Shown: positions 10,331-26,000 of the stretch, in pieces
Position numbering within the stretch: the stretch's first letter is position 1
How the letters are laid out: each line of letters starts with the position of its first letter
DNA from: Clostridia bacterium
GTDB taxonomy: Bacteria > Bacillota > Clostridia > Christensenellales > CAG-917
Direction of reading: 5' to 3'
Assembly (NCBI GenBank): GCA_024405515.1
Contig: JAKSOR010000002.1
Coordinates: 14,062-78,061 of the forward strand
DNA: 64,000 bases
The notes under the pieces: model-generated
Seen by the model: only the letters and a program-made list of their open reading frames with translations
Databases searched by the model: none
What the model was told of the DNA's origin: nothing
Position numbers and translations under genes: made by a program

Positions 10331-10348
10331 TACTGTCCGCCTCCTGTA

Positions 10349-13300
10349 TTATTTTGCGACAGTTACTGTAAGTGTTCCGTCAACAGTTGTTATGTTGTAG
10401 CATGATGTCACATCCTCGCCACCAGCATTCTTGATGATTACGCTGTCAATAGTGTTCGGGGATGAACCAGGTTTAAGCTGTGAGCCGCTTACTGTTACTG
10501 TGATAATATCTCCGGATGCAAGATCTCCGGTGATAGTGTATGTGGTGCATGTGAGTGCAACAGGGTCTGCTTTGTTGTATGTGCCCGATGCACTGTCTGC
10601 TGTAATTGTTATGTCTCTAGGTGTGACCTTGATAATTCCACAGTTTCCTGTGATTCTGTAGTACTTTGTGACATCATTTCCGCCTTCATCCACAATCTTA
10701 TAAGAAGCTACGTTATCTGCTTCGCCTACTTCTTTTCTTGATGCTGTTGCATTAAGATATTCAAATGAATGTCCGTCGGCAAGACCGGCAAGTGTTGCAG
10801 CCTGTTCAAGTGAAGTTACGGCAACGCCGTTAATTTTTATTGAGGATGATGAGTGCTCAGTACCGTCATATGTCACAACCATACCTTCTGTCTGAACGGC
10901 AATATCCTGCAGATATGTCTGCATCTTTCCGCCATAGTATGTGAACTTAAAGTCTTTTGTCACGTCGTTGCCATTCGGGTCGAGAAGAACAAATGAATCG
11001 ATGGCACTTGTATCCGTACCGAATCCGAGGAGTGTTCCGACGGTTTTTACTTTTTTGTATGTATATCCTTTTGCTTCGAGCTTCTCAAGACCTTCAAGAC
11101 CTGTCGGTGCATAAAGGGTATATGTTTCTCCGTCTTCGATATCTGCGGCCTTATAGGAAATGTTCACCGGTTTGACATAGTATGTTGCGCTTTTTTCTGC
11201 TTCGGTCAGAGGTGTTTCGTTTACGACCGTGTTTCCTGCGGTTGCATCAATCTGTACCCAGCCGATTCCGTTTACATAAACTTCCGTCCATGCATGGCGT
11301 TTCATATTTGTGATGGTTACCCATTCGTTTTCTTTTGCATATGCATAGTATCCTGAAACGTATCTTGCAGGGATACCTTTTGCTCTGAGCATCATTGTGC
11401 ATGCTTCAGCAAAATGAGAGCAGATACCCTGTTTATAATCTCTGAGGAATGCTATTACTTTATCCTGTTCGGAATCCAGCGCTCTGTCGTATGAGATATT
11501 GTAATCAGCTGCATTTCTTACATAATTTACGATATCCTCAACGGATACAAGACTGTTTTCTGCAATGATTTCATCAAGGAAAGTCTTTGTGTCTGAAGGA
11601 ATCTGGAGATATCTTCCTGCATTGCTTACAAATGCATAGTAATCAACTTCTTCGGAGGCATATGTGTAATCCAGAGGCTGACTCATTGCACTGATATCAT
11701 CATAAGTTAGTGAGTAATAATTTACTGTGTATTCACCGCCTTCAGGGCTTCCAGTATAGAGAATGTCACTTGTCTGAACGCCGTTTCCGTCCATTGCCAT
11801 ATAGTACGGAAGAACATAAGGGGAATTTATCAGTTTGATTGTTGCAGAAGAAGGTGTAATTCCTCCGTTTCCATCAATTACTGCGGATGTGAGATAGTTA
11901 TATGAATAAGTACCGTCTAAAAGTTCCGTATATTCGGTGCCTTTTGTCCATCCGTCCCCGTCATATCCTGTATAAGAGAAACTTCTTAAATATACAGGGC
12001 CGGTTTTATCTGCCTTGATGCTGAGCACACTGTATTCAGAGGCATACTCTTCTTCAGTTGAAAGGCCTGTTCTTTCCTTTGAGTAGACAAGGATTAACTG
12101 ACCTTCGTTTATTAAGATGTCATATGAATCAGTTACATCCTCATCGGTTTCAGGATCATATCCGTCTATTGTGTCAAAGAGTGATGCATCTGCCATAAAG
12201 CATACGAAAGTCTCTCCGTCATTTGTTGCCTTCACGTAAACTTTGTCAAAGTCCTGATTGAACCCGAGGAGGCTTATTGTTGAGAGTGAGTTGAAGGTAT
12301 CATCTCCTATAGTTATTGTGTTGCCGGTTGTAATCTTGATAAGACCGTCTGTTGAACTGTTTCTTCTGAAGATCTTAATACGTGCAAATGTGTTTGTTGC
12401 ATTTCCGATATAATCAAGGTTACCGTCAATTGTTGCCACAATATAATCAGTAGGGGCAGGTGAACCGTATGTGATATCAAATTCCTTATATGTAAGCGGA
12501 TGACCTGCATATTCTTCTGTTCTGTCTTTTGATCTTACCGTGATATCGCGCTCGACTATTTCAAGAGTTCCGTCAATAACTGTTATGTCATAGTTTGCAG
12601 TTACATCCTTTGATACTGCAAGAATCTTAAGTGAACCACTCTTCATTCCGTTGACTGCAGTGCCTACTTCATTTATTGAAGCGGATTCGGCAAGAATGAA
12701 TGTGAGCGTGTGACCGGAAATAAGTTCTCCTTCTGTGATTGTATAATCTTCTGATGTGAGTCTTAACGGAGTTCCGTCATACTGCTTTGATGCAGAATCA
12801 AGCTGAATGGTTATCGCAAGCGGCGACACAGTTAATGTGCCGAAGTCTTCAGTTATATCATAGTTAGAAGTCTTCGGGCTGTTTGCAACAATGTTTCTTA
12901 TCATATATGAGAAACTGTTGTCTTTTTCACCGGCATCTAAAATGGATGCATATGAACCGGAAACAACCAGTTCCTCGCCGTCAGCGATGACACCGTCGGT
13001 AATTGTGTATCCCTCACTTGTAAGCGGAGTTCCGTCATATGTCTTTGATGCGGAAAGCGTTGTGATAGTGAGAGTCTGCTTTTCAACAGTAAGTGTTCCG
13101 TATTCAGGAATAAGTTCATAGTTTGATGTGACGTCGTTTTCATCGGCATCTTTTACGAGAATTGAGAACTCGTTATCGATTGTTCCTGCATCGGTTAATG
13201 AATTAAGGAATGTTACCGTGAGAGTATGTCCGTCCGCCACAGTGGATTCAATAAGTTCATAATCCTGTTTTTCAAGCGGAGTTCCGTCATATGTCTTTGT

Positions 13301-14959
13301 TGCTGATAATGACTTAATATTAAGTGCTCTCTTTGCGATGGTTAATGTTCCCTCGTTAAGAATGAAATTGTAGTTTAAAGAATTATCTGTTCCGTCAGCT
13401 TTTGTCACGGAATATGTGATGGCGTTAGTTACTGAACCCGGTTCTGTCATTTCCGTATCAAGAGAGTAGGTCAGTATATCCCCGTCAGCGGCATCGCCTA
13501 CAGCGGTAATATCACCGCAGTCTATCTTTTCACCGTTATATACTTTGAGTTTATCCTCAGAGGTGAGGGTAATGTCTCTCTTTAAAATAGTGAATGTGCC
13601 GGTTGTTACGATAATATTGTAGTTTGAAGTTACATTTGTGTTGTTTGCATCAAATACGAGAGGACTTATCTTGTTCTCAATGTTTTCACATACATCTGTA
13701 ACTGTTGTCACTGCTCTGTAGTAAATTGTGTGTCCGTCGCATAATGTTCCGTCGGTTATTGTAAGATCGGCATCCGTGCTTGCAAGCGGAGTTCCGTCAT
13801 AAACTTTGGATTTTGTTGCACTTTCAACAAATAAATCACGAGGTATAACCTTGATTGTTCCGAACTGTGTATCAACAATATAGTTATCTGTTATATCGTT
13901 GCCGTCAGAATCTTTGAATGTCCATGTTACTTTATTAGGTGTTTCTCCGACATCAGTACGTGAACCTGTGTAGACAATATCAAATACATCGCCAGGAGCT
14001 ATTTCGCCCTGAACAATTTCATAACTCTCGCACTTAATAGGAGTGCCGGTGTATTCTTTGGTATCTGAACCGGTTTCGATGGCAATTCTTCTGATTCCCA
14101 CCTGAAGGGTTCCTTTCTGGCATGAAATAATATAGTTAAATGAAACATCATTACCGTCTTTATTTACAATCTTTACAGAGAAGTCATTAACAATGGTGCC
14201 TACGTTTGTGATAGATGAATCATTATCAACAATTATGTAGTCTCCTTCGACAAGTGAATCTTCATCCGTTTCAAAAGAAGTATCTTCAAGCGGTTCCCCG
14301 TCATAAATCTTTGAGGCAGAAGGGGATTTAACGGTAATGGAACGCGGTGTCACAACAAGTGAACCGAATTCTTTTGTGATATCATAGTTGGCCGTAACGT
14401 CTCTTGACTGTGAATCAAAAACAGTGACTGAGAATGTGTTTGCAACGGTTCCGACATAGGTTACCGACTGTGTGAAGTCAGCACTGATTCTGTGACCAGG
14501 TGCAAGTTTACTGTTCTCACTTATGGCATATTCATGGCTTTCAAGCAGTTTTCCGTCATAAGGTTTTGCCTTGGAAACGGAAGTAATTGTCAGTGGGGCC
14601 TTATTAACGGTAAGTGTTCCGAGTTTTATGTCAATTTCATAATAATCGGATACATCGGTGCCGTTGGCATCAACAATTGTTACAGACATATAGTTAAGGG
14701 AAGATCCAACCTCGGTCTGTGAACCATATACAACTACTTTCGGTGTATGGCCTGCTTTAAGACTTCCTTCTATTATCGAATAATCACTGCAGGTATGTTC
14801 CTGCCCGTCATAAACTGCTGTCAATGATGCGGATTCGAAGACAACTGATGATTTTTCGACATCAATTACATTGCCTCCGACCAAACCGAAAATGATTGCA
14901 AGAGTACTTGCAATTCCGATTACTACTGCACCTATGATGTAAACTAGTTTGTTCTTCAT
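10349..14959 (-). CDS. 1536-aa N-terminally anchored surface protein. It has about ten YDG/MBG-like repeats, a transglutaminase-like domain and two or three further repeats. No LPXTG, SLH or other C-terminal anchor was seen.
   Basis: ORF track. The N-terminus MKNKLVYIIGAVVIGIASTLAIIFGLVGG is a signal anchor. The recurring repeat is K.YDGTPL....Y.I..G.L..GH.L.......T..G...N.....I......DVT.NY.I....GTLT(V/I). The core reads DKVIAFLRDYKQGICSHFAEACTMMLRAKGIPARYVSGY...RHAWTEVYVNGIGWVQIDAT. The protein ends ...DGTLTVTVAK. Confidence 0.9.
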   Translation of the reverse strand: MKNKLVYIIGAVVIGIASTLAIIFGLVGGNVIDVEKSSVVFESASLTAVYDGQEHTCSDYSIIEGSLKAGHTPKVVVYGSQTEVGSSLNYMSVTIVDANGTDVSDYYEIDIKLGTLTVNKAPLTITSVSKAKPYDGKLLESHEYAISENSKLAPGHRISADFTQSVTYVGTVANTFSVTVFDSQSRDVTANYDITKEFGSLVVTPRSITVKSPSASKIYDGEPLEDTSFETDEDSLVEGDYIIVDNDSSITNVGTIVNDFSVKIVNKDGNDVSFNYIISCQKGTLQVGIRRIAIETGSDTKEYTGTPIKCESYEIVQGEIAPGDVFDIVYTGSRTDVGETPNKVTWTFKDSDGNDITDNYIVDTQFGTIKVIPRDLFVESATKSKVYDGTPLASTDADLTITDGTLCDGHTIYYRAVTTVTDVCENIENKISPLVFDANNTNVTSNYNIIVTTGTFTILKRDITLTSEDKLKVYNGEKIDCGDITAVGDAADGDILTYSLDTEMTEPGSVTNAITYSVTKADGTDNSLNYNFILNEGTLTIAKRALNIKSLSATKTYDGTPLEKQDYELIESTVADGHTLTVTFLNSLTDAGTIDNEFSILVKDADENDVTSNYELIPEYGTLTVEKQTLTITTLSASKTYDGTPLTSEGYTITDGVIADGEELVVSGSYASILDAGEKDNSFSYMIRNIVANSPKTSNYDITEDFGTLTVSPLAITIQLDSASKQYDGTPLRLTSEDYTITEGELISGHTLTFILAESASINEVGTAVNGMKSGSLKILAVSKDVTANYDITVIDGTLEIVERDITVRSKDRTEEYAGHPLTYKEFDITYGSPAPTDYIVATIDGNLDYIGNATNTFARIKIFRRNSSTDGLIKITTGNTITIGDDTFNSLSTISLLGFNQDFDKVYVKATNDGETFVCFMADASLFDTIDGYDPETDEDVTDSYDILINEGQLILVYSKERTGLSTEEEYASEYSVLSIKADKTGPVYLRSFSYTGYDGDGWTKGTEYTELLDGTYSYNYLTSAVIDGNGGITPSSATIKLINSPYVLPYYMAMDGNGVQTSDILYTGSPEGGEYTVNYYSLTYDDISAMSQPLDYTYASEEVDYYAFVSNAGRYLQIPSDTKTFLDEIIAENSLVSVEDIVNYVRNAADYNISYDRALDSEQDKVIAFLRDYKQGICSHFAEACTMMLRAKGIPARYVSGYYAYAKENEWVTITNMKRHAWTEVYVNGIGWVQIDATAGNTVVNETPLTEAEKSATYYVKPVNISYKAADIEDGETYTLYAPTGLEGLEKLEAKGYTYKKVKTVGTLLGFGTDTSAIDSFVLLDPNGNDVTKDFKFTYYGGKMQTYLQDIAVQTEGMVVTYDGTEHSSSSIKINGVAVTSLEQAATLAGLADGHSFEYLNATASRKEVGEADNVASYKIVDEGGNDVTKYYRITGNCGIIKVTPRDITITADSASGTYNKADPVALTCTTYTITGDLASGDIITVTVSGSQLKPGSSPNTIDSVIIKNAGGEDVTSCYNITTVDGTLTVTVAK
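11225..11450 (-). other. Transglutaminase-like Cys-His-Asp core of the 1536-aa protein
   Basis: GICSHFA (Cys codon 11420-11422), HAWTEVY and WVQIDAT motifs in canonical order and spacing. Confidence 0.8.
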
Positions 14960-14971
14960 AATCTTCCCGGT

Positions 14972-16384
14972 TTATGCATTTCTAGCAAGAGTTCTGATGT
15001 GTGTCTTGCATATCGGCATTCTGTCTACGCCGAATAATTCGTCTAAGTATGCACAGAGTTTATCGGCACTGTTTCTTAAGTAAACAGGGTTCTGTGCTTC
15101 AAGTTTTCTTATGACTTTCTTTGATAAAATGTCATCAAGTGCCTCAAGTTCGTTTCCGCCACATGCTACATATACTGGTATGTATGTCTTTATCTGCTTC
15201 ATGATTCGGTTACCGAATGTCATATGGAAGTTTTCAATTAAATATGCATCTAATTTCTCAAGTCTTCTCATATTTCTTGAGGTAATCTCATATTCTTCAA
15301 GTGCTTCTCTTGTCAGCTGATCGAACTGCTCTGCTGAAATGTGCACGTTCTTTGTCTTCGGTGCGATGAACGGTTCTGCTTTTGTATCAAGGTTAAGTAC
15401 CATAGCACGGTCATAAACCTTATCTGAGATAGCAAATGTAGAGTCGTCGTTGTTTGCTGTTCCTATAAACCACATGTTTACAGGGAGTTTTATTCTTCCG
15501 TTAACAAGTTCTGTCGGGTCTGTGTCCCATTTATCAGAAACTACGTCTAAGAATCTTTCATCCGGGTTAGGGAGTTCAAGGAGAGATAAGAACTCAGCAA
15601 AATAGTACTCGACACGGGCAATGTTCATTTCATCAAGAACTGTTACGTAAATGTCTTTAGAGTAGTTTGCTTCGTACATCTTCTCTAAGAGTTTTGTTTC
15701 ATTGAATCTCTGTGTGAATTCATTGTAGTAACCGATAAGGTCTGTTCTTTCTTTCCACATAGGCTGAACAGGGATAACAGTGGACTGGTTTTCAAGGAAG
15801 TCTCCGAATGCATGGGCAAGGGAGGTTTTACCTGTACCGGACATACCCTGAAGAATCATGATATGTGAAACCGAAAGACCTGCAATGAATCTTCTTATGT
15901 CATCAATTTCATAGTATAAGTGAAGCTTATTTGCTGCATACATATGGAATGAATCGCAGAATTTTTTAAGAGATATAGACTTATCGTAGTTTTCTCTCTG
16001 GTATGAGACTGCGTTCTGGTCTATCTGGGAAAGCATGCAGAAACGAGGAGTGTCGCCCTGTTCTTTCTTTTCTTTGACAGCTGACGGAGCAGCAACGCTG
16101 ATTCCGCCCTGAACCTGGATAGGGTTCTGACCATCGAGAACAATATCAATAGGCTCCGATTTTTTGGAAACGAACGATACTATGATGAGTATTACCAGGA
16201 ATACAGGCAGTAAAAGAAGGAATATGATAAGAACGTACATTGTTTCGGAATGTACAAGTGGAGGGTTGCCGCCTGCCTGTTCGAAATAATATGCGATGGA
16301 GAAAGCAAGCAATGCTGTCACAACGGCTATTGCTATGATAAATGCCACCATCATTATTATTTTCTTTGTTTTCTTATTTTCCAT
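14972..16384 (-). CDS. Membrane-tethered McrB-family (AAA_5-like) AAA+ NTPase, paralogue 1. It has an N-terminal 2-TM hairpin.
   Basis: Two hydrophobic helices sit at the N-terminus (IIMMVAFIIAIAVVTALLAFSIAYY and VLIIFLLLLPVFLVILIIVSFV). Walker A is ILQGMSGTGKTS (15824-15847). Walker B is VTVLDEMNIARVEYYFAEFLSLLE, which parallels McrB DEINRAN..FGEL..LIE. VIPVQPMW..TDLIGYY parallels McrB VQFHQSYSYEDFI.GY. The segment LPVNMWFIGTANNDDS...DRA parallels McrB IIGTMNTADRS...RRF. Confidence 0.8.
   Translation of the reverse strand: MENKKTKKIIMMVAFIIAIAVVTALLAFSIAYYFEQAGGNPPLVHSETMYVLIIFLLLLPVFLVILIIVSFVSKKSEPIDIVLDGQNPIQVQGGISVAAPSAVKEKKEQGDTPRFCMLSQIDQNAVSYQRENYDKSISLKKFCDSFHMYAANKLHLYYEIDDIRRFIAGLSVSHIMILQGMSGTGKTSLAHAFGDFLENQSTVIPVQPMWKERTDLIGYYNEFTQRFNETKLLEKMYEANYSKDIYVTVLDEMNIARVEYYFAEFLSLLELPNPDERFLDVVSDKWDTDPTELVNGRIKLPVNMWFIGTANNDDSTFAISDKVYDRAMVLNLDTKAEPFIAPKTKNVHISAEQFDQLTREALEEYEITSRNMRRLEKLDAYLIENFHMTFGNRIMKQIKTYIPVYVACGGNELEALDDILSKKVIRKLEAQNPVYLRNSADKLCAYLDELFGVDRMPICKTHIRTLARNA
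15000..16048. repeat. Direct repeat copy A: a 1049-bp tract identical to 18388-19436 (offset 3388 bp)
   Basis: Line-by-line comparison of about ten sampled blocks found no mismatch. The identical antisense ORFs in the track (15111-15320 and 18499-18708) agree with this. Confidence 0.85.
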
Positions 16385-16407
16385 ATTGTTCTTTTATATC
16401 TATATAT

Positions 16408-18357
16408 TTAGTTATTACTATCCATAAAGTCATCGAGTGACATTACTTCATCTTTTACGTTTGTAGCCTGAGGGATTTCATCCATATTCGGGATTTCTTC
16501 CTTAACTTCATCCTTTGAAACCTTTGCTTTCTTCGGAGCTTTGGCTTCTTTAGGAGCTTTTTCAGGCTTTGCCTCTTTGCCTTTTGCCGCTTTTTCTGCT
16601 TCTTTGTCTTTCTTTATTTCTTCCTTAAGTTCTTTTGCAGGTTTTCTTAAAACTTTCTTTCTTATGGATTTCTTTGTCTTATTCCATTCTTTCTCAAAGA
16701 ACTGCTGGAAGTATTCGTATTCTTTTTCGAGCTGTGCAAATCCTTCTTCGGAAGTGTAGTCATCCATTTCGCCTTCAAGTCCCTGAGCAGATCTTAATGA
16801 ATTAAGTCTTGCCTTAAGATGAGCAAATTCTGTCTGGAGGGCAATGAGTTCTTTCTGCTTTTCTGAAAGTTCCTGCTCTTTTGCCGCAAACAGCATATTT
16901 GCTGCCTGTAATTTCTGGGCATGGGCTCTGTCGGAATCCTGTTTGTCCTGGTACATCATTTCAATGACCTGGTCTTTGTGCTCCATATCTGCCTTAAGTC
17001 TCAGTTTTTCCGTATTGACTGCAGCAGCTATATCTTCATCTCTTGATTCTTCCATTTCCTCAATTCTCTCGTCACATTCTTCTTCCATAGCGGCAAGTTT
17101 GAGTTTGAAATCAGAGAGCTGTTTTGCATTTGTATAGGTAGCTTTTGCAAGTTCCTGCTGTGATTCATCGAGTTCTGCTTCAAGTGATTCAATCTGTTCT
17201 GATAAATCTTCTGCTTCGGAAGCCATCTTCTCAATGGTCTTTAAGGATGCAGCAAGGTTAGCATGGTCATTTTCAAGGGATTTGTTTCTTCCCTCAAGAA
17301 GTGCCATATATTCATCAGGATCACCACCATTTTCCTTTACATGTCGGCGTACGGTTCTGATTTTTTCCTGAAGTTTTAAGTCTTCTTCTTCCTTTCTTCT
17401 TAATTCTTCCTTCTCATAAGCGGATTTGTAGAGTTTCTTTATATCAAGGCCGTGTTCGTATGTAAGGAAGGCTGAAAGGAATATTACTTCAGAGAATTCA
17501 TCTCCGATGTCATCTCCGAACGGTGTTAATACCTTTGTTTCCTCGGTTATTGTGTATCCGTCTCCCTGGTAATCCGTGATAAAGGAGTATAGGGCAAGGG
17601 CGTTCTTGAAATTATGGTTCATCTTAAGAACGTTTGTTCTTGTGATAGGCGGTTTAATCATCGGTACTTTTGCAACTTCTTCCATGAGCGGGGTGGAAAG
17701 GAGTGCCTCTACGCCGATAAGACAGTTGTTGATTCTGTCGATGATTTCCTTTGATTTGTTATGTGTTGAAAGGTACTGGTCATTTAATCTTGTCTCATTA
17801 AGATCACAGGAGTATTCGAGAGTTTCGCCGTGGAATGAAATTGTCTTCTTCATTTTAAGTTTTCCGCGGTATGTGTTGGTTCTTTCAAGAATCTTCTCAT
17901 ATCTGTCCTGAATGAATGATCTTAAGTATGTGAGTACAAGATATAAGAATCTGTTCTCATATACTGCAAAATCACTGAATCTTTCAACGGAATAGAGAGA
18001 TGACGGAATAAGCGGTTCGCCTTCTTCCGGGATTCTGTCTACAAGGTTAGTGTGTTTTGCAAGGTGCTCAACGGATTCTTTTGATACATGCTTGATTTTT
18101 TCAATCGGCATGACTTCTCCGTTGCTCTGAATGAACTGACGCTGTTCGGCTATTGCTTTTTCAATATATACAAGGCCTGATTCGATCTGATTTACCCACT
18201 CCTCATCGATCTTGCAAACTGAACGGATAATCTCGATACGGTCATTTTCCGTACCTACGGAAGCAGCTATTGACCTGTAGGTCGTAGCTTCCTGAGATTC
18301 TTTCGTTATTTTGCGGTAATCAACCAGCGCTCGGTAATATAGATCGTATATGTTCAT
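16408..18357 (-). CDS. 649-aa cytoplasmic protein in the McrC position. It has a ~330-aa N-terminal globular domain (possibly McrC/DUF2357-like), a ~270-aa coiled coil, and a K/E/A/P-rich tail ending in an acidic stretch. No nuclease motif was recognised.
   Basis: The gene lies between the two McrB-like genes, with gaps of 2 nt and 23 nt. It contains the motif DFAVYENRFLYLVLTYLRSF and, later, PPITRTNVLKMNHNFKNALALYSFI. Residues ~330-560 are heptad-like and E/K/L/Q-rich. The tail reads KKDKEAEKAAKGKEAKPEKAPKEAKAPKKAKVSKDE...SLDDFMDSNN. There is no hydrophobic segment. Confidence 0.6.
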   Translation of the reverse strand: MNIYDLYYRALVDYRKITKESQEATTYRSIAASVGTENDRIEIIRSVCKIDEEWVNQIESGLVYIEKAIAEQRQFIQSNGEVMPIEKIKHVSKESVEHLAKHTNLVDRIPEEGEPLIPSSLYSVERFSDFAVYENRFLYLVLTYLRSFIQDRYEKILERTNTYRGKLKMKKTISFHGETLEYSCDLNETRLNDQYLSTHNKSKEIIDRINNCLIGVEALLSTPLMEEVAKVPMIKPPITRTNVLKMNHNFKNALALYSFITDYQGDGYTITEETKVLTPFGDDIGDEFSEVIFLSAFLTYEHGLDIKKLYKSAYEKEELRRKEEEDLKLQEKIRTVRRHVKENGGDPDEYMALLEGRNKSLENDHANLAASLKTIEKMASEAEDLSEQIESLEAELDESQQELAKATYTNAKQLSDFKLKLAAMEEECDERIEEMEESRDEDIAAAVNTEKLRLKADMEHKDQVIEMMYQDKQDSDRAHAQKLQAANMLFAAKEQELSEKQKELIALQTEFAHLKARLNSLRSAQGLEGEMDDYTSEEGFAQLEKEYEYFQQFFEKEWNKTKKSIRKKVLRKPAKELKEEIKKDKEAEKAAKGKEAKPEKAPKEAKAPKKAKVSKDEVKEEIPNMDEIPQATNVKDEVMSLDDFMDSNN

Positions 18358-18359
18358 TT

Positions 18360-19688
18360 TTATGCGTTCCTTGCGAGTGTTCTAATATGTGTCTTGCATA
18401 TCGGCATTCTGTCTACGCCGAATAATTCGTCTAAGTATGCACAGAGTTTATCGGCACTGTTTCTTAAGTAAACAGGGTTCTGTGCTTCAAGTTTTCTTAT
18501 GACTTTCTTTGATAAAATGTCATCAAGTGCCTCAAGTTCGTTTCCGCCACATGCTACATATACTGGTATGTATGTCTTTATCTGCTTCATGATTCGGTTA
18601 CCGAATGTCATATGGAAGTTTTCAATTAAATATGCATCTAATTTCTCAAGTCTTCTCATATTTCTTGAGGTAATCTCATATTCTTCAAGTGCTTCTCTTG
18701 TCAGCTGATCGAACTGCTCTGCTGAAATGTGCACGTTCTTTGTCTTCGGTGCGATGAACGGTTCTGCTTTTGTATCAAGGTTAAGTACCATAGCACGGTC
18801 ATAAACCTTATCTGAGATAGCAAATGTAGAGTCGTCGTTGTTTGCTGTTCCTATAAACCACATGTTTACAGGGAGTTTTATTCTTCCGTTAACAAGTTCT
18901 GTCGGGTCTGTGTCCCATTTATCAGAAACTACGTCTAAGAATCTTTCATCCGGGTTAGGGAGTTCAAGGAGAGATAAGAACTCAGCAAAATAGTACTCGA
19001 CACGGGCAATGTTCATTTCATCAAGAACTGTTACGTAAATGTCTTTAGAGTAGTTTGCTTCGTACATCTTCTCTAAGAGTTTTGTTTCATTGAATCTCTG
19101 TGTGAATTCATTGTAGTAACCGATAAGGTCTGTTCTTTCTTTCCACATAGGCTGAACAGGGATAACAGTGGACTGGTTTTCAAGGAAGTCTCCGAATGCA
19201 TGGGCAAGGGAGGTTTTACCTGTACCGGACATACCCTGAAGAATCATGATATGTGAAACCGAAAGACCTGCAATGAATCTTCTTATGTCATCAATTTCAT
19301 AGTATAAGTGAAGCTTATTTGCTGCATACATATGGAATGAATCGCAGAATTTTTTAAGAGATATAGACTTATCGTAGTTTTCTCTCTGGTATGAGACTGC
19401 GTTCTGGTCTATCTGGGAAAGCATGCAGAAACGAGGGGTGTCTCCCTGTTCTTTCTTTTCTTTCTTGATAGATACACCTTCAGTAACCGTACCATTTGCA
19501 ACGATAGGGAGTGCTGATGACGATGTGATGTTTGCCAGGAACTTGGAGTCATCCTTTCTGAATGCCGCAAAAACGAGAGCAATAAGAATTAATGCCAGGA
19601 TTACGACATAAATAATGAGAGCAGTTTTGTTGAAAACCACATTAAAGAATGACTGCATTGCTTCTGATGCGCTGATTAATATGTTCAT
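18360..19688 (-). CDS. Membrane-tethered McrB-family AAA+ NTPase, paralogue 2. It has a single N-terminal TM.
   Basis: The N-terminal TM is ALIIYVVILALILIALVFAAF. From KEKKEQGDTPRFCM to the C-terminus it is 100% identical in protein sequence to paralogue 1 and carries the same Walker A/B and NNDD motifs. Confidence 0.8.
   Translation of the reverse strand: MNILISASEAMQSFFNVVFNKTALIIYVVILALILIALVFAAFRKDDSKFLANITSSSALPIVANGTVTEGVSIKKEKKEQGDTPRFCMLSQIDQNAVSYQRENYDKSISLKKFCDSFHMYAANKLHLYYEIDDIRRFIAGLSVSHIMILQGMSGTGKTSLAHAFGDFLENQSTVIPVQPMWKERTDLIGYYNEFTQRFNETKLLEKMYEANYSKDIYVTVLDEMNIARVEYYFAEFLSLLELPNPDERFLDVVSDKWDTDPTELVNGRIKLPVNMWFIGTANNDDSTFAISDKVYDRAMVLNLDTKAEPFIAPKTKNVHISAEQFDQLTREALEEYEITSRNMRRLEKLDAYLIENFHMTFGNRIMKQIKTYIPVYVACGGNELEALDDILSKKVIRKLEAQNPVYLRNSADKLCAYLDELFGVDRMPICKTHIRTLARNA
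18388..19436. repeat. Direct repeat copy B of the 1049-bp identical tract
   Basis: Same comparison as for copy A. Confidence 0.85.
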
Positions 19689-19695
19689 ACTGTCC

Positions 19696-22600
19696 TCACT
19701 GCTGGCTTACCTGGAGGGAAGAAAGTGCAATTACTTTCTGGCACTGTGAAATGCTGTCATCCCCGAAGATAGCCCCGAATGTTTCTGTAAATTTCTCCGC
19801 GTCATAGTTTTCAGCGTTTCTGAGTACTGAAACAATAACCGGAAGGAACTTATATGCCAGTGTAAAGTCGAGAGCTTCCGAAGCATCGGAGTTACATGCA
19901 AGCATTGTTGCTGCGAACTGCTCTGTTCTCATACACAGTTTGTTACTCATATGGTAAGGACTGTATTTTGCTACAAGGTCCTCAAGTCTGTCGATCTTCT
20001 TCCATGTGTCTTCTTCAAGTTCAAACTCACGTTTTGCAACCTGTGTCATATACTGGAACTGATCATAATCAACCTTTGTGATAGGTGTCTTTTTGTCTTT
20101 CTTTGTGCACTCGCCGGCCTCAAGATTGATAAAGCATGCAAGGTCAGCAATGTGCTTTGGAAGTGCATCAAGGTTTTCATCTCCGCATACGTTCATGCAG
20201 ATCCATAAATTGGACGGTACTTCGATAGCTCTGTTGATACCGCTCTTAAGTTCAATCATGTTGACCTTATTAGGATTTGAGATGTACTTGATAACAGGTG
20301 AGAAGAATAAGTCAATAGAGGAGAGTTTAACATTCTGAAGTCCGACAAAGGAAATCTGGGGAGCAGTGAATGTCCCTTTTGCTGCTGCCTTAGCGAATGG
20401 TGTTTCCTCAAGTCTTGAACCGTTCTTTTTGTAGAAGAGATCAAGCGGTGATTCTGCTCCTGTAAGATCCTGGAGTGTATTCTGTGAGAAGAAATATGCG
20501 TTCATGATTGCCACTGTGAGATCGAAAATCTGTTTAGGGGCACGGATGAGCATAAGTCTTGATGTTGCCATTGATGAAAGAAGTAATCTTGCCTGGCTGT
20601 AGTTGATTCCGAGGCCTCTTTCGTTTGAGAATACCAGGAACTGTTTGCATATCTTTGAGAAAGTAATGTTCTTATCAACGAATGCCTGTCCTTCGTCTTC
20701 TTTATTTGCTGTTTCTTCCTCATCATCGAATTTGAAGTTCTCAAATTCTTTTTCGAAGATGTCATCAAGCTGGGATGAAGATACTCTTTCTGCATGTTTG
20801 AATCTGTCAGGAGCGGTCTTTTCAATCTGTTTCTTCTTTGAGAGGTCTTTAAGTCTTATGGCTGCCCATACGATAAGACCGATTCCGCTTACTCCGACGA
20901 GTCCGCATATAGCAGCTACGGCAGCCTGGATAAGAATGCCGTCATTCTTGAGCATTAATACTGATACTATCGCGCACGCAATACCTATTAATGTTGCAGC
21001 AATTCCACCTGCCAAAAGACCTGTCCATTTCTTGAGTTTTGCAGGGGTGGAAGTTGCACGTAATCTGAAATCATCATCAATGATATTTGATTCTGACTGC
21101 AGATAATCTTTCTTCTTTTCTCCTGTTTTAGCGAGATCCTTGCCTGCAACGGTCATCTCATCCATTATCTTGATATTTGATACGGATGGTCCGATATAGA
21201 GGTCATAGATTCCGGACTGGAGAATCATTGAATCGGTATCAGGGTCATAGAATTCAAGGTTTTCGATAGGTACTGTTACTTCCTGTGATTCGCCCGGATT
21301 AAGTTTAACCTGGACAAATGCCTTGAGTTCCTTGTTAGGCGTCATTACTGCAGAACCTTCGTTACCTACGTAAATTTGGGCAGTTTCTTTACCTGCCATA
21401 CTGCCGGTATTTGTGATTGTGAAGGTTACATCAGTGCCTTTTACCGAGAATTTTGAATATGTGAATGTCGTATATGAAAGACCGAAACCGAACGGATAAC
21501 GGACTGAAATATTGGATGAGTCATAGTTATAATAACCAATAAACTGTCCTACTTTGTTTCTTCCGCTGTCACGGTTGTTCTTTATCTGCTGGAACCAGTC
21601 GTTTGTATCTTCGTAAAGGGAGATGCTCATTCTTCCGACCGGGTTGAATTTGCCAAAGATTACATTGATGAGGGCATACGCTGAATATGTTCCTTCAATA
21701 GGTGCCCAGATGACACTCTGATAATCTCTGTCCCATCCCATATCAACAGGATATCCTGATGAAACGATGGCAACTGTCTTGTCTCCGAACTGGCTTAATC
21801 TGTCTATAAGTGCCTGCTGGTTTGCAGGGAGTGCAAGGTCCATTGAATTATGGATATTTGCCTCATATTCTTTGTTTGTTCCGAGGAACAGCCATATCAT
21901 ATCTGCCTGACCTGCAAGAGATTCAGCCTGGGAAAGAAGTTCTTCAGAGATATTTTCCTCAACATTGTATCCAGGAGCATGGCCTATAAATTCAAAATCA
22001 AGAGTCTTTGCATATGCTGTGAGACCGCCGATATAGTTAGGTGAACCGGAAAGTCCGTCCACGTCACCGATAATTGCTATTTTCTTTTTCTCTTTTACAG
22101 GGAGAATACCGAATTTATTCTTTAAAAGAACTACTGATTCGAGTGATGCTGCCTGAGCGCATGATGTGGCGCTGCTTGATGCCTGTCTGTTGCATGCATC
22201 GGCGAAATCAAAGAGTTTGTCAAGTGCTGCATCGAGCATTTCAGGAGATACTGCGCTTCCTTCCTCAATGGTCATGTTAAGGTCTTCAATTGAACCTGAA
22301 CCCTCGAGAATGGATTTCTGAAGTGACTGATAGTTCGCAACTGCAGAGGCGAGGGAAGATGCTGCGCCTTTAAGACACAGATTACCCTTTACAAGCTCTC
22401 TTAAAGTTTCATCAAAAGAATAGGCATCCGCAAATACTGTTGTTCCGAGCTGAGATTTGGCGACCTGGTCTATAAATGAGCGGTTTATATCCCCATAGTC
22501 TTTCAGCATTTTTGTTGAAGTTACGACTGCTTCGGCTTTGCACTTCTTCATTGCCTGCATATAAGGACTGATGAAGAAATGGTAGACAATTCTCTTAGAA

Positions 22601-23046
22601 GGAGTCGAATCGAAATATTCTATATCTGTATCCGCGACTGAGAAATCAGGAACGATGGATGCAGAACCTGCCTTGTGAACACCGCTGATGAAAGCGCCGG
22701 TGAAGATACCTGAAAGATACGGATCTTCACAAAGACCAGGCATGTACATGTTGCATCTAGGTTTTGCTGTCGGGACCTCAATAAGGTTTACGCCGGTTGC
22801 TCTTGCTGTGTTAGCGATATCGAGAGCACTTGCTTCCATAAGGGTGGTATCCCATGAATTTGCAAGGGCGGCGGCAGGCGGGTAAGCTTTTACTGCCTGT
22901 GTGCTGAGGTTTTCGAGAGTGTCCATTGTAACCTGCGGGACTCCCATTGCGTTCAGTTCCGGATTGGAGAGATTGGTCACATCCGTTAAGAGTGCAATCT
23001 TCTGCTGAACTGATAATTGATCGATAATTTGCGAATGTTTAATCAT
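19696..23046 (-). CDS. 1116-aa fusion protein: a GH3-like three-domain module (N-domain, C-domain, Fn3-like) with no signal peptide, a 2-TM hairpin and a degenerate (Walker-dead) McrB-like AAA+ domain
   Basis: GH3 hallmarks include KKIAIIGD, ADMIWLFLGTNKEYEAN...LALPANQQALI, PVGRMSISL, RYPFGFGLSYTTFTYS and GKETAQIYVG...ELKAFVQVKLNPGESQEVTV. The hydrophilic N-terminus is MIKHSQIIDQLSVQQ. The TM hairpin is WTGLLAGGIAATLIGIACAIVSVLML and ILIQAAVAAICGLVGVSGIGLIVWAAI (about 20851-21024). The C-terminal 323 aa align along their length with the neighbouring AAA+ proteins. Confidence 0.8.
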   Translation of the reverse strand: MIKHSQIIDQLSVQQKIALLTDVTNLSNPELNAMGVPQVTMDTLENLSTQAVKAYPPAAALANSWDTTLMEASALDIANTARATGVNLIEVPTAKPRCNMYMPGLCEDPYLSGIFTGAFISGVHKAGSASIVPDFSVADTDIEYFDSTPSKRIVYHFFISPYMQAMKKCKAEAVVTSTKMLKDYGDINRSFIDQVAKSQLGTTVFADAYSFDETLRELVKGNLCLKGAASSLASAVANYQSLQKSILEGSGSIEDLNMTIEEGSAVSPEMLDAALDKLFDFADACNRQASSSATSCAQAASLESVVLLKNKFGILPVKEKKKIAIIGDVDGLSGSPNYIGGLTAYAKTLDFEFIGHAPGYNVEENISEELLSQAESLAGQADMIWLFLGTNKEYEANIHNSMDLALPANQQALIDRLSQFGDKTVAIVSSGYPVDMGWDRDYQSVIWAPIEGTYSAYALINVIFGKFNPVGRMSISLYEDTNDWFQQIKNNRDSGRNKVGQFIGYYNYDSSNISVRYPFGFGLSYTTFTYSKFSVKGTDVTFTITNTGSMAGKETAQIYVGNEGSAVMTPNKELKAFVQVKLNPGESQEVTVPIENLEFYDPDTDSMILQSGIYDLYIGPSVSNIKIMDEMTVAGKDLAKTGEKKKDYLQSESNIIDDDFRLRATSTPAKLKKWTGLLAGGIAATLIGIACAIVSVLMLKNDGILIQAAVAAICGLVGVSGIGLIVWAAIRLKDLSKKKQIEKTAPDRFKHAERVSSSQLDDIFEKEFENFKFDDEEETANKEDEGQAFVDKNITFSKICKQFLVFSNERGLGINYSQARLLLSSMATSRLMLIRAPKQIFDLTVAIMNAYFFSQNTLQDLTGAESPLDLFYKKNGSRLEETPFAKAAAKGTFTAPQISFVGLQNVKLSSIDLFFSPVIKYISNPNKVNMIELKSGINRAIEVPSNLWICMNVCGDENLDALPKHIADLACFINLEAGECTKKDKKTPITKVDYDQFQYMTQVAKREFELEEDTWKKIDRLEDLVAKYSPYHMSNKLCMRTEQFAATMLACNSDASEALDFTLAYKFLPVIVSVLRNAENYDAEKFTETFGAIFGDDSISQCQKVIALSSLQVSQQ
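19699..20667 (-). other. Pseudo-ATPase McrB-like domain (Walker A and Walker B lost)
   Basis: Manual alignment to the paralogues:
- SHIMILQGMSGTGKTSLAHAF vs SRLMLIRAPKQIFDLTVAIM (GKT lost)
- VTVLDEMNIARVEYYFAEFLSLL vs SFVGLQNVKLSSIDLFFSPVIKYI (DE becomes LQ)
- IKLPVNMWFIGTANNDD..ISDKVYDRAMVLNLD vs IEVPSNLWICMNVCGDE..LPKHIADLACFINLE
- the C-terminal helical parts also align (ISAEQFDQL.. vs VDYDQFQYM..). Confidence 0.7.
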
Positions 23047-23067
23047 GGTTTATGCTCCTAAACTAGA

Positions 23068-26000
23068 TTAATCTATGTCCTTAGTTTTGATTTTTAATCC
23101 GTACAGATATACCTTGTCGTTTGCTGTACTGTTTGCTGATAAACTTGTGTTGTTAATCCTGAACTTGAGTGAATTGCCGGAGTTCAGTGTTATTGAGTAG
23201 TGAACTGGGTCAGCTGTGACTTTGATTCCGTCCTGGCTGAGTGCATCATTTATGAATACCTGGAGTTCTGAGGATGAACTCTTGAAATCTACAAAGTAAC
23301 TGAAGTCTGCCTCGACACTCTTACCTTCCGGTGCTTTTATTTCTATTGCTGTATAGTACTGTTTCTGGCTGCACTTTGATTTAAGCACTACTGCATTATC
23401 CTCGTATGCTACATATGAAACTCCCTGGAATATATCTGTAAGGGTAATTTCTTCTCGTGTCTTTGCATTGGCTGAATTGATTAATGTCCAGTGGCAGACC
23501 TTACATTCATTGTTTTCGTCAAGGTCATGGCTTCCCGGAGCAGTTGTTGAATATTCATCTCCACAGGCCGGGCATTTGAAGATTGTGTATACTTCGATAT
23601 CGCAGTTGTCTGATTCAACTCTGTCTGGAACGAAGTGGTTGATTTCTGTTGAGATTTCGCCTGCAGCTGTGAGTGTCCACTGAGTATTCTCATGTACACA
23701 TGCAGCATAATAAAGAACAGTGATATCACCGAAGCTTCTGTTTGATCTGATGCTTGGCCATGTTGTAGCTGTTCCTTTGTAATAAACAGTACCGGTGAAA
23801 TTGTTCGGATTCTGGAACCATAAGTTGGAGAATAATGCAATTGATGAAGGGGCGATAATCTTGTCAATATGTGAATCAGGATTTGTCATTGATAATTCGG
23901 CAACTGTGTAGGAATTAATCTCGCTTCCTTCGAATTCAAATGAATCGGCAAGTTCAAGAAGACCGTTTTCTGTTTCTCCTGAGATACTGTATAGATACCA
24001 TTTATCTGCATTATAGAGTGAATACGATACGTAGTAGAATTCTCCGTCTCTGAGTGTGTTTACGCTGAGAGCGCCTGCACTCTGGACAACTTCCTTTGCA
24101 TAGAGTGATACCTGGCCGTTGCTTGTTGTGCCGGTAACCACAGTTAAACCGGAAAGGTTGATGATGCCGTATAAATGCTTGCATCCCGTGAATGCTTCCG
24201 TAGAGATTGACTCAAGGTTTTCAGGAAGTGTGAGTACAGAGAGTCCGTAACAGTTATAGAATGCCTGCTCACCGATTGAAAGAAGTGAGGACGGCAGAGT
24301 GATATTATAAAGTCTGTAGCAGTTGTAATATGTTTTTCTGCTAATTGACTCAAGGTTTTCAGGAATATTTATATCTTCGAGTCTGTAACAGTTTTCGAAT
24401 GCACTTTCTCCGATTTCGGTTACTGTTGAAGGTATTGTGAGTGCAAGAAGTGAAGAGCAGTTCTTAAATACTTCTTCTCCGAATGATGTGAGATTAACGG
24501 AAGCAGAAGGAAGAGTTACAGCACTTAAATTCAGACATCCGCTGAACATGGAATCTGCAAGAACTTTTAATGATGAAGCACCGCTTAAATCTGCAGTCGT
24601 GAGTGAAGTGCAGCCTGCGAAACAGTTTTCAGGGAGTACTGTTACAGCTCCTGATACTGATACTGATTTGATTGCCGGGTTTGCATTGAAGATTCCGCCG
24701 AGAACTTTGTACTGGAAAGGGAGACCGTCATATGCATCTCCTTCTGCGGATTCGAATTCACCGAGGACGAGATTTTCAGGCATCATGCTATTAAGTGCAT
24801 ATAAGAACCAGTCTATTCCGTTTGTCTTGAAGACGAAATCGCCGTATACAGAATCGTAAAGGCTCTTCTTTGTTTTGTTATTGTGTATAAGAAGTGCATT
24901 CTTTGCAACATATCCGTGATTATCGCTTCCCTGTTCAATGTCAAATGATGTCAGATTGTATACATCATAAAGAACCGGGCATCCGATGAATGCGGATTCA
25001 CCGATATTTGCCTCACTGAGTGAGAACGGGAGATATACTGCAGAAAGTGATGAGTCATATGCAAATGCAAAGTCACTGATTGTTTCTGTTCCGTCAGGAA
25101 TTTTTGCATCTTTTAATTTTGCACAGCTGTTGAATGCATAACTGCCGATTTCCCTGAGATAACATGTGTCTTCCGGGAATAAAATGCTTTCAAGAGATGC
25201 GTTTTCTGAGAATGCATAGTCACCGATACTGCTGATACATGCTGCAATGCCGATCTTTGTGATGGCAGTGTTGGCCTCAGCAAAGTGCCCGATGATATTG
25301 TATTTTGATGCTGTTCTTACAATTCCTCTTGCATTTTCACCGGATGGTGTCTGAGGAAGTGTGAGTTCAGTCTTTGAATGATCGTAGTCAACAAGATACC
25401 AGTCACCGCCGTGTGTAACGTCTGCTTTATAGAATTCAAATCCGTTTTCATCAGTGAATTTTTCGGAATCAGCTATATATGCTGTTTCTGAATCATAGAC
25501 TGCGAGCGGGTTAGGGGCTACAGCTGTGAACGGTGAAGGGTTAATGATTTCAACAAGTTTATAGCAGTTGTTGAAAGCGTTTGATTCTATATCGTCAATA
25601 AGTCCCGACGGGATATTTATGTAGTTAAGGGATGTACATCCGTCAAATGCGTTGGACTCGATTGTCTTGATATCATCATTGAGAGAGACTCTCTTTAATG
25701 ATGTGAGTCCGTAGAATGCATTCTGAGGAATAAGTGTCGCTTTTGTAAGAGCAACTTCCCTGAGTGTTTCCGGTACATATTTATTTCCGTTTACCGCAAT
25801 GCCTGAACCGAAGATATATGCAAGATATCCGTACTCATCCCCGTTTCTGTTTCCGACATAAGGAAGTGATAACTTAACAAGGGAACCGCATCCGAGGAAT
25901 GAATTCTGACCGATGGTTGTGACTGTTTCGGCAATAGTTGCTTCGGTAAGGGCAGCACAGCTGTTGAATTCGTTTTCACTGATTAATGTGGCACCGTCTT

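Follow-up and report, generated by a model that had tools for sequence, protein, structure and literature searches.

How do two genes whose beginnings are unrelated come to share, base for base, more than a kilobase of their remaining sequence? The question is raised by a 64,000-nucleotide (nt) stretch of a Clostridia genome (Christensenellales, CAG-917; assembly GCA_024405515.1, contig JAKSOR010000002.1, positions 14,062 to 78,061), called the window here, in which two genes for McrB-like AAA+ NTPases lie on the minus strand on either side of a gene for a DUF2357 protein. The copy ahead of the DUF2357 gene is referred to as the upstream copy and the one behind it as the downstream copy (Table 1; all positions are those of the window). 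The two are very probably ancient paralogs of a membrane-anchored McrB-like AAA+ NTPase whose cores have been kept near-identical by repeated gene conversion, and the locus is a real and clear instance of bacterial concerted evolution, a known phenomenon, in an operon that is itself uncharacterized.

When the two copies were compared without gaps at an offset of 3388, they shared a single exact run of 1049 bp. This run lies within a homologous, conversion-competent tract of 1105 bp that, in the downstream copy, begins 7 linker codons upstream of where the conserved (RF) core starts and ends 1 nt beyond the stop codon. Exactly nine mismatches occur in the 1105-bp tract, and codon-wise comparison shows that all are synonymous third-position changes. 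Seven of them fall among the last nine sense codons at the 3′ gene end (14978, 14981, 14984, 14987, 14990, 14996, and 14999; N AAT/AAC, R AGA/AGG, A GCT/GCA, L CTT/CTC, T ACT/ACA, I ATC/ATT, and H CAC/CAT), and two occur at the 5′ gene end (16049 and 16055, i.e., 27 and 21 nt inside the 5′ tract end; T ACT/ACC and G GGC/GGA). Beyond 16075 and 19463, on the gene-upstream side, the copies are unrelated, and the proteins carry different N-terminal anchors: a hairpin of two transmembrane (TM) helices in the downstream copy and a single TM helix in the upstream copy. The exact identity, both groups of synonymous differences, and the unrelated anchors had all been claimed in a preliminary description of the sequence and were borne out, and full pairwise comparison turned up none of the scattered mismatches that it might have missed inside the run.

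The distribution of these differences is far from random. If nine differences are distributed among 368 codons by chance, the probability that 349 consecutive codons contain none is about 3e-11, and such a run was reached in 0 of 2,000,000 permutations. The transition is also abrupt, with 7 differences in 22 nt at the 3′ edge followed by 0 in 1049 nt. With expectations for full synonymous saturation computed from the codon usage of the operon, 7 of 9 codons differ at the 3′ edge versus 4.8 expected (P[≥7] = 0.13) and 2 of 9 at the 5′ edge versus 3.9 expected. Both edges are compatible with the near-saturation earlier supposed for the flanks, although the counts are small.

The relationship between the copies becomes clear when other genomes are considered. 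A scan of species-representative genomes yielded 72 loci (designated by L numbers below), an alignment-based scan of metagenomes yielded 80 more, and two ENA contigs were added; both copies occupy one contig in 36 loci, the window included. A metagenome scan with the single DUF2357 protein as the query returned no relatives, which the alignment-based scan found, and the family is very large, with at least 8000 candidates in each protein search. The 36 loci derive from many Clostridia and from metagenome-assembled genomes (MAGs) of Acholeplasmatales and Anaeroplasmataceae, and they have a common order: a 1-TM McrB-like gene, a DUF2357 coiled-coil gene, and a 2-TM McrB-like gene. In 32 of the 36, DNA identity between the two cores is 97% or more, and the exact runs measure 726 to 1199 bp; in 14 of 16 metagenome loci, it is at least 98.8% (exact runs of 726 to 1162 bp). 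At the amino acid (aa) level, the cores are 97 to 100% identical within 17 of 18 genomes, as against 56 to 96% (median, 67.5%) between genomes.

Four-sequence site patterns were counted for 17 genome loci and the window, in the 84 genome pairs with equal core lengths. A site was scored as concerted when the two paralogs in one genome have the same base and neither paralog in the other genome has it. Over the 84 pairs, 30,343 sites were concerted and 2 were orthologous. The same holds for close pairs, with ratios of concerted to orthologous sites of 109:0 for the closest (L023/L029), 214:0 for L037 versus L046, an isolate genome (Anaerocaecibacter muris CLA-AA-M11, 444x coverage), and 90:0 for L074/L075, whose cores are 99.2% identical in protein yet differ at 90 concerted nucleotides. 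Core identity is 100% in at least 13 more 1-TM/2-TM pairs among database proteins, and in strain-level protein sets, both paralogs carry the same strain-specific substitutions: the two members match completely (100%) in P0007/P0111 and likewise in P0011/P0129, and identity from one pair to the other is 98.3%. Similarly, when the core is divided into blocks of 60 nt, the two window copies have equal numbers of differences from the sister contig L073 (89% aa identity) in each block. These comparisons indicate that the cores have been homogenized again and again, as expected of concerted evolution by gene conversion.

The anchors tell a different story from the cores. In every two-copy locus from which anchors were extracted, the upstream copy has one TM helix and the downstream copy has two. 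Anchors have a median identity of 25 to 29% to anchors of the same type in other genomes and 18% to the other type, and the downstream copies across genomes have in common the motif (R/H)SE(T/M)xY before TM2, indicating from sequence that each anchor type is orthologous from genome to genome. Because both the anchors and the gene order are conserved across genomes, the duplication must be ancient, and its near-identical cores must have been homogenized repeatedly since. Alignment of orthologous loci thus gives concerted cores inside the tract and orthologous anchors outside it, which upholds the earlier claim, extended here to 36 loci, that the copies are old and that their interiors were homogenized by conversion.

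The limits of identity are also regular. In nearly all loci, the 3′ limit lies at the stop codon plus 0 to 6 nt, and the 5′ limit is variable. Of the 116 differences between copies in the 32 homogenized loci, 77 lie within 100 nt of a tract edge. Clusters of synonymous differences at the 3′ edge recur in L042, L015, L051, and L055; in L042, where the spacer to the next gene is about 300 nt, the copies differ in the stop codon and in each of the five sense codons before it. The edge pattern fits, by analogy, a model developed for the tuf genes in which conversion is bounded by gene ends (PMC5485169).

The preliminary description had offered a more particular reason for the 3′ limit in the window, namely, that the end of the upstream copy supplies a Shine-Dalgarno (SD) sequence for the next gene. 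The sequence quoted for this end, GCAAGGAACGCATAAAAATG, is correct and contains the motif AAGGA, located 10 nt from the ATG of the DUF2357 gene (18355-18357), which is itself separated from the stop codon of the upstream copy (18360-18362) by a spacer of 2 nt. The downstream copy has TAGAA at this place (upstream-type 3′ end, GCAAGGAAC; downstream-type 3′ end, GCTAGAAAT). Among 18 loci compared, a spacer of just 2 nt between the stop codon and the next gene occurs only in the window; elsewhere the spacers are longer, and several of these loci show an SD sequence of their own. The block that creates the motif, ACA CTC GCA AGG, occurs also in the sister contig L076, where the spacer is 3 nt long and the DUF2357 protein is 95% identical in aa, but is absent from the more distant L073; it is derived in the window lineage. 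The upstream copy of L073 has CAT, ATT, and AAC as in the upstream copy of the window and ACT, CTT, GCT, and AGA as in the downstream copy, indicating that the 3′-edge differences arose on both copies. The SD argument is plausible for the window lineage, given the 2-nt spacer and the block in common with L076, but it does not supply a general reason for the stop at the gene end: almost every locus has its tract end at the stop codon, and the cluster of L042 lies next to a long spacer, indicating that an SD sequence is not needed for the tract to stop.

A mechanism that would account for these patterns starts from ancient tandem paralogs, one with a 1-TM anchor and the other with a 2-TM hairpin, flanking the DUF2357 gene in a conserved operon of gut Clostridia. 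Their cores of about 1.1 kb, direct repeats 3.4 kb apart, very probably overwrite each other repeatedly by non-reciprocal homologous recombination, and we infer that a RecA-type pathway is presumably responsible. Since conversion between long identical repeats would be far more common than point mutation, substitutions would be either lost or copied into both genes, and the cores would evolve in concert. Conversion would require homology on both sides, and for this reason, tracts would end where homology does, at the stop codon and in the linker that follows the unrelated anchors. The last few tens of bases would be converted least often and would gather synonymous differences, with purifying selection preserving the conserved C-terminal peptide, and the accumulated mismatches may in turn block extension of the heteroduplex, producing the sharp edge at 15000/18388. 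In the window lineage, in which the spacer has shrunk to 2 nt, the upstream copy's final codons would double as the ribosome-binding site of the DUF2357 gene, and this role of AAGGA could add selection against conversion of the 3′ edge.

Several observations weigh against this account or caution against parts of it, and most of them bear on the possibility that the identity was produced during assembly, the copies in truth being different or only one, with the edge of a collapsed repeat written twice. The strict perfection of the interior depends on the assembly. De Bruijn assemblers can pop the bubbles formed by single-nucleotide polymorphisms (SNPs) between near-identical repeats, a process that retains differences within about one k-mer of the repeat edge and so mimics a perfect interior with edge differences. 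All differences in the window lie within 31 nt of the tract ends, and the 100-nt zone enriched in differences among the 32 loci is on the scale of common k-mer sizes; bubble popping could contribute to that enrichment. Assemblers do struggle with this repeat, as seen in the 72 genome loci, where a core copy contains or adjoins 48 of the 87 visible contig ends (as would be expected if the repeats are near-identical in most genomes), and the isolate L046 retains 14 interior SNPs (about 98.5% identity). At the edges, several loci are identical right through the stop codon, so that edge escape is not universal, and the SD argument comes from one lineage, in which two of the seven 3′-edge changes touch the motif. 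Nevertheless, an artefact of assembly is improbable as the source of the pattern. Collapse erases sparse SNPs only and cannot render identical two copies that had diverged as far as orthologs (10 to 30% in nucleotides); moreover, the two-copy order occurs in 36 independent assemblies, among them the isolate at 444x, which itself displays only concerted sites in the comparison with L037. Like the concerted pattern, the sudden drop in differences (7 in 22 nt, then none in 1049 nt) is real under any scenario, and it is the exact identity of the interior that needs long reads. An exact repeat of 1049 bp also resembles a very young duplicate, as would result if the core had been duplicated recently within this lineage, without conversion, onto an existing anchor or with replacement of the anchor. 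Such an origin is extremely improbable, since it would require at least 30 independent events, each yielding the order 1-TM, DUF2357, 2-TM with orthologous anchors. Orthologous two-copy loci are found in relatives, the 5′ boundary varies among genomes, the tract edges show near-saturated synonymous divergence, and diverged lineages (L057, L113, and L122) have the same architecture.

It is also possible, though rather unlikely, that the identity is due mainly to selection, for co-assembly of both proteins in a ring or for interaction with one DUF2357 partner, with conversion merely the means. One such partner is encoded for two live cores and a dead paralog (described below), most genes with long-lasting concerted evolution encode subunits of stable complexes (PMC6053082), and the direct repeats have been maintained although they are prone to deletion, as if both anchors were needed. 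The preliminary description had likewise named an unusual constraint to stay identical as an alternative, but the loci reveal no such requirement. The homogenized tract takes in 4 to 37 linker codons that are not conserved between genomes, and synonymous sites, which differ freely between genomes, are homogenized as fully as non-synonymous sites, as the mechanism alone would explain. Three lineages (L057, L113, and L122) have the same operon architecture with cores only 64 to 77% identical in protein, and L055, at about 93% nucleotide identity, has partly escaped. The two paralogs of the three fully escaped lineages are still each other's closest relatives, implying past concerted evolution followed by escape, and their existence shows that core identity is not obligatory. 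Together, these features of the sequences argue that the identity is the product of a recombination process rather than something that function absolutely requires; the homogenization may be furthered by selection that keeps the subunits interchangeable. A further and unlikely reading is that homogenization is not a passive by-product and that the operon encodes one membrane-bound, nuclease-less machine derived from McrBC, comprising the two anchor types, a dead GH3-fused paralog, and the DUF2357 partner. Identical live cores are predicted in such a machine to be carried on an N-out single TM helix and an N-in hairpin around one DUF2357 coiled-coil partner; domain-limited conversion would keep the live subunits interchangeable while the anchors specialize, and the whole, encoded in one operon with LRR and transglutaminase surface proteins, might act not in restriction but as a sensor or motor associated with the envelope.

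Two other explanations were considered and rejected. Programmed diversification of the type seen in diversity-generating retroelements (DGRs) would make copies differ, whereas these are identical and show no asymmetry between a template and a variable copy. Constraint at the nucleotide level, such as an embedded RNA, is contradicted by the free divergence of synonymous sites between genomes.

Some loci depart from the two-copy order. L002, L019, L041, and L048 have the GH3-like gene, one core, and the transglutaminase-like gene and are without the DUF2357 gene or a second copy, an order that is either the product expected of recombination between direct repeats or the result of an assembler skipping the loop between them. 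In L001, the DUF2357 gene is retained and the downstream copy is missing. Many contigs of 2.2 to 3.8 kb (L033, L045, L049, L056, L059, L063, L069, L071, L076, and many of L077 to L156) are made up of the tail of one core followed by the DUF2357 gene, the 2-TM anchor, and the head of another core, the inter-repeat loop having been orphaned by short-read assemblers.

Assignment of the two NTPases to the McrB family is based on motifs. Both proteins match Pfam AAA_5 (E = 7e-7 for the upstream protein) and the PADLOC candidate model PDC-M26A (E of about 1e-46; E = 1e-46 for the upstream protein), and the sole PDB entry matched in sequence is E. coli McrB (6hz4). The Walker A (GMSGTGKT), Walker B (VLDEMN), and signature (GTANNDD) motifs align to GPPGVGKT, IIDEIN, and GLMNTAD of E. 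coli McrB, and their positions are invariant across 77 homologs. The signature NNDD can be read as NxxD or as NxD+D, leaving the McrB subclass ambiguous. An AlphaFold2 (AF2) model of the core (predicted local distance difference test [pLDDT], 83; predicted template modeling score, 0.86) was compared by Foldseek with known structures, which returned a group comprising MCM, dynein, MoxR/RavA, NorQ, and McrB, with McrB (6ut3/6ut4) at rank 40 to 44 (E of about 2e-4). Hence, the label McrB-like given in the preliminary description stands with respect to motifs, but the structural search does not single out McrB among the AAA+ clades. Together with a partner in the position of McrC, the label is fair at the level of sequence motifs, from which GTP hydrolysis stimulated by the McrC-like partner, a trait of the McrB family, can at most be predicted.

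The layouts of the proteins set them apart from McrB. The upstream protein consists of a short N terminus, one predicted TM helix, a linker, and a cytoplasmic core, and the downstream protein has the same core behind its hairpin anchor and a linker; application of the positive-inside rule suggests that both cores are cytoplasmic. The N termini thus comprise a single TM helix or a 2-TM hairpin and a short linker in place of an N-terminal DNA-binding specificity domain, and the window trio is not a canonical McrBC restriction enzyme. The DUF2357 protein matches PF09823 over residues 57 to 167 (E = 2e-7; 30.8 bits against a cutoff of 23.3), beyond which it forms a long coiled coil, with a heptad-like Leu/Glu-rich pattern in the consensus of the family alignment, and ends in a Lys-rich tail. 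No PD-(D/E)xK nuclease was detected in it by Pfam, NCBIfam, or PADLOC. An AF2 model of residues 1 to 340 (pLDDT, 81) had no Foldseek match in PDB at E < 0.1, and McrC was not recovered. The only stretch of this model with low confidence (pLDDT < 50), residues 75 to 127, lies inside the Pfam match, in a region rich in invariant residues (e.g., R73, Q74, F75, G80, E81, K87, H98, and P118), and judging from the model, it may become ordered only upon binding of a partner.

The nearest precedent for the concerted pattern is the pair tufA/tufB of Salmonella and E. coli (PMC5485169), paralogs of about 1.2 kb that are kept near-identical by recombination-dependent, non-reciprocal transfer and are homogenized at synonymous sites as well as at non-synonymous ones. 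The tuf genes are whole-gene duplicates lying far apart in inverse orientation, whereas the present case involves a domain-sized core in direct repeats 3.4 kb apart in one operon, with unlike anchors that are not homogenized. Long-lasting concerted evolution of protein-coding paralogs is considered very rare in prokaryotes, and the 26 genes found in a survey by Wang and Chen in 2018 were attributed to recurrent conversion (PMC6053082). As in those cases, of which most are subunits of stable complexes and one, mtrA, combines tandem duplicates with domain rearrangement, the paralogs here are closer within than between species across deep distances; unlike them, they occur in uncultured gut Clostridia, which that survey hardly sampled, and a text search of the article for McrB found nothing. 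The literature search returned no paper linking McrB to gene conversion between paralogs.

With McrBC (E. coli McrB/McrC and Thermococcus gammatolerans McrB; 6hz4, 6ut3, and 6ut4), the window proteins have in common the GxxGxGKT, DE(M/I)N, and G-T-x-N-x-x-D core motifs and an adjoining partner with DUF2357, the N-terminal domain of McrC. They differ in having TM anchors instead of an N-terminal DNA-binding domain, two live copies and one dead one, a partner with a long coiled coil and Lys-rich tail in which no PD-(D/E)xK nuclease is detectable, neighbors of the GH3-like, transglutaminase-like, and LRR types rather than methyltransferases, and cores for which Foldseek places MCM, dynein, and MoxR/RavA above McrB. 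According to the available passages of the paper describing CoCoNuT and CoCoPALM systems (Bell et al. 2024, PMC11090510), these systems likewise include a McrB-like NTPase fused to a membrane-associated N terminus and a McrC homolog with a coiled coil, often without an active nuclease. In the same passages, CoCoPALM has an FtsB-like TM helix with a coiled coil and has signal-peptidase or pilus neighbors, as opposed to the TM anchors without a coiled coil found here, and neither twin copies nor concerted evolution is reported; assignment is further complicated by the NxD-versus-NxxD ambiguity of NNDD. In the literature searched, CoCoPALM was mentioned only in the CoCoNuT paper. The candidate defense system PDC-M26, whose protein A model both NTPases match, found no mention in any publication retrieved; the best-scoring stretch covers only profile positions 313 to 430 of 724 (model PDLC04547), and none of the other proteins of the operon matched a PADLOC model. 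Judged by sequence, the operon resembles derivatives of McrBC, departs from CoCoNuT and CoCoPALM systems in its anchors and neighbors, and is uncharacterized.

This new, domain-limited, and unusually well-replicated case is found in dozens of species among uncultured gut Clostridia and their relatives and offers natural replicates of each stage: perfect pairs, eroded edges, partial escape (L055), and full escape (L057, L113, and L122). It amounts to a natural experiment on where conversion tracts end, on how boundaries are fixed by edge mismatches and by overlapping signals such as an SD sequence, and on how genes escape from conversion. The family itself is very abundant, and its operon, with McrB-like NTPases anchored in the membrane, a DUF2357 partner lacking a nuclease, and a GH3-fused dead paralog, is uncharacterized. 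On the practical side, the 1.1-kb twin repeat breaks or shortcuts short-read assemblies, and users of MAGs and annotation pipelines should expect the operon to be fragmented or collapsed.

The three genes belong to a tightly packed operon on the minus strand (10349-28572), with gaps of 2 to 23 nt between genes, in the order BspA-type LRR, GH3-like, upstream McrB-like, DUF2357, downstream McrB-like, and transglutaminase-like. The six-gene operon, including the transglutaminase-like neighbor, is found also in L009, L046, L074, and L075, and a BspA-type LRR gene has the same position in L074, L002, L041, and L048. Scans of the window for Rfam families and tRNAs were empty, and a scan for promoters and terminators gave nothing convincing within the operon.

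Table 1. Features of the window discussed in the text
Feature	Position	Strand	Length	Basis or remarks
Downstream McrB-like AAA+ gene	14972-16384	-	470 aa	Open reading frame (ORF), Pfam, PADLOC, TM prediction
DUF2357 (McrC N-terminal-like) gene	16408-18357	-	649 aa	Pfam DUF2357
Upstream McrB-like AAA+ gene	18360-19688	-	442 aa	ORF, translation, Pfam AAA_5, PADLOC PDC-M26A, TM prediction
Identical tract, downstream-gene copy	15000-16048		1049 bp	Ungapped comparison
Identical tract, upstream-gene copy	18388-19436		1049 bp	Ungapped comparison
Full homologous (conversion-competent) tract, downstream copy	14971-16075		1105 bp	
Full homologous (conversion-competent) tract, upstream copy	18359-19463		1105 bp	
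3′-edge cluster, 7 synonymous differences in last 9 sense codons	14978-14999	-		Partners 18366-18387
5′-edge pair of synonymous differences	16049-16055	-		Partners 19437 and 19443
AAGGA Shine-Dalgarno-like motif, last codons of upstream copy	18368-18372	-		Sequence and sister-contig comparison
Transglutaminase-like protein, conserved downstream neighbor	10349-14959	-		Pfam
GH3-like protein, first conserved operon neighbor	19696-23046	-		Pfam, alignment to L009
BspA-type LRR protein	23068-28572	-		Pfam LRR_5, E = 3e-185

The GH3-like protein is composed of a GH3-like domain, an Fn3-like domain, a hydrophobic stretch at about residues 676 to 740 (probably a TM segment and visible in the full-length alignment to L009), and a C-terminal region of 350 aa (19696-20748) that is related to the McrB-like core (E = 5e-17, 20% identity). 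In this region, RAPKQIFD aligns to GMSGTGKT and LQNVK to LDEMN, so that both the Walker A and Walker B motifs are lost. By sequence, it appears to be a third, catalytically dead paralog of the core, too diverged for conversion.

At the other end of the operon, the transglutaminase-like protein carries a hydrophobic anchor at its N terminus, together with Ig-like repeats and a transglutaminase-like core. It is followed by a stop-free frame of more than 3440 aa on the minus strand (1-10348), which starts near 10330 with a hydrophobic anchor and runs off the start of the window; related loci have further transglutaminase/Ig-repeat genes at this place. Within the transglutaminase-like gene, families of direct repeats at multiples of about 255 bp (12472-14576; motif CGGAGTTCCGTCATA on the plus strand) coincide with the tandem Ig-like (MBG/AgI-II-like) domains of the protein.

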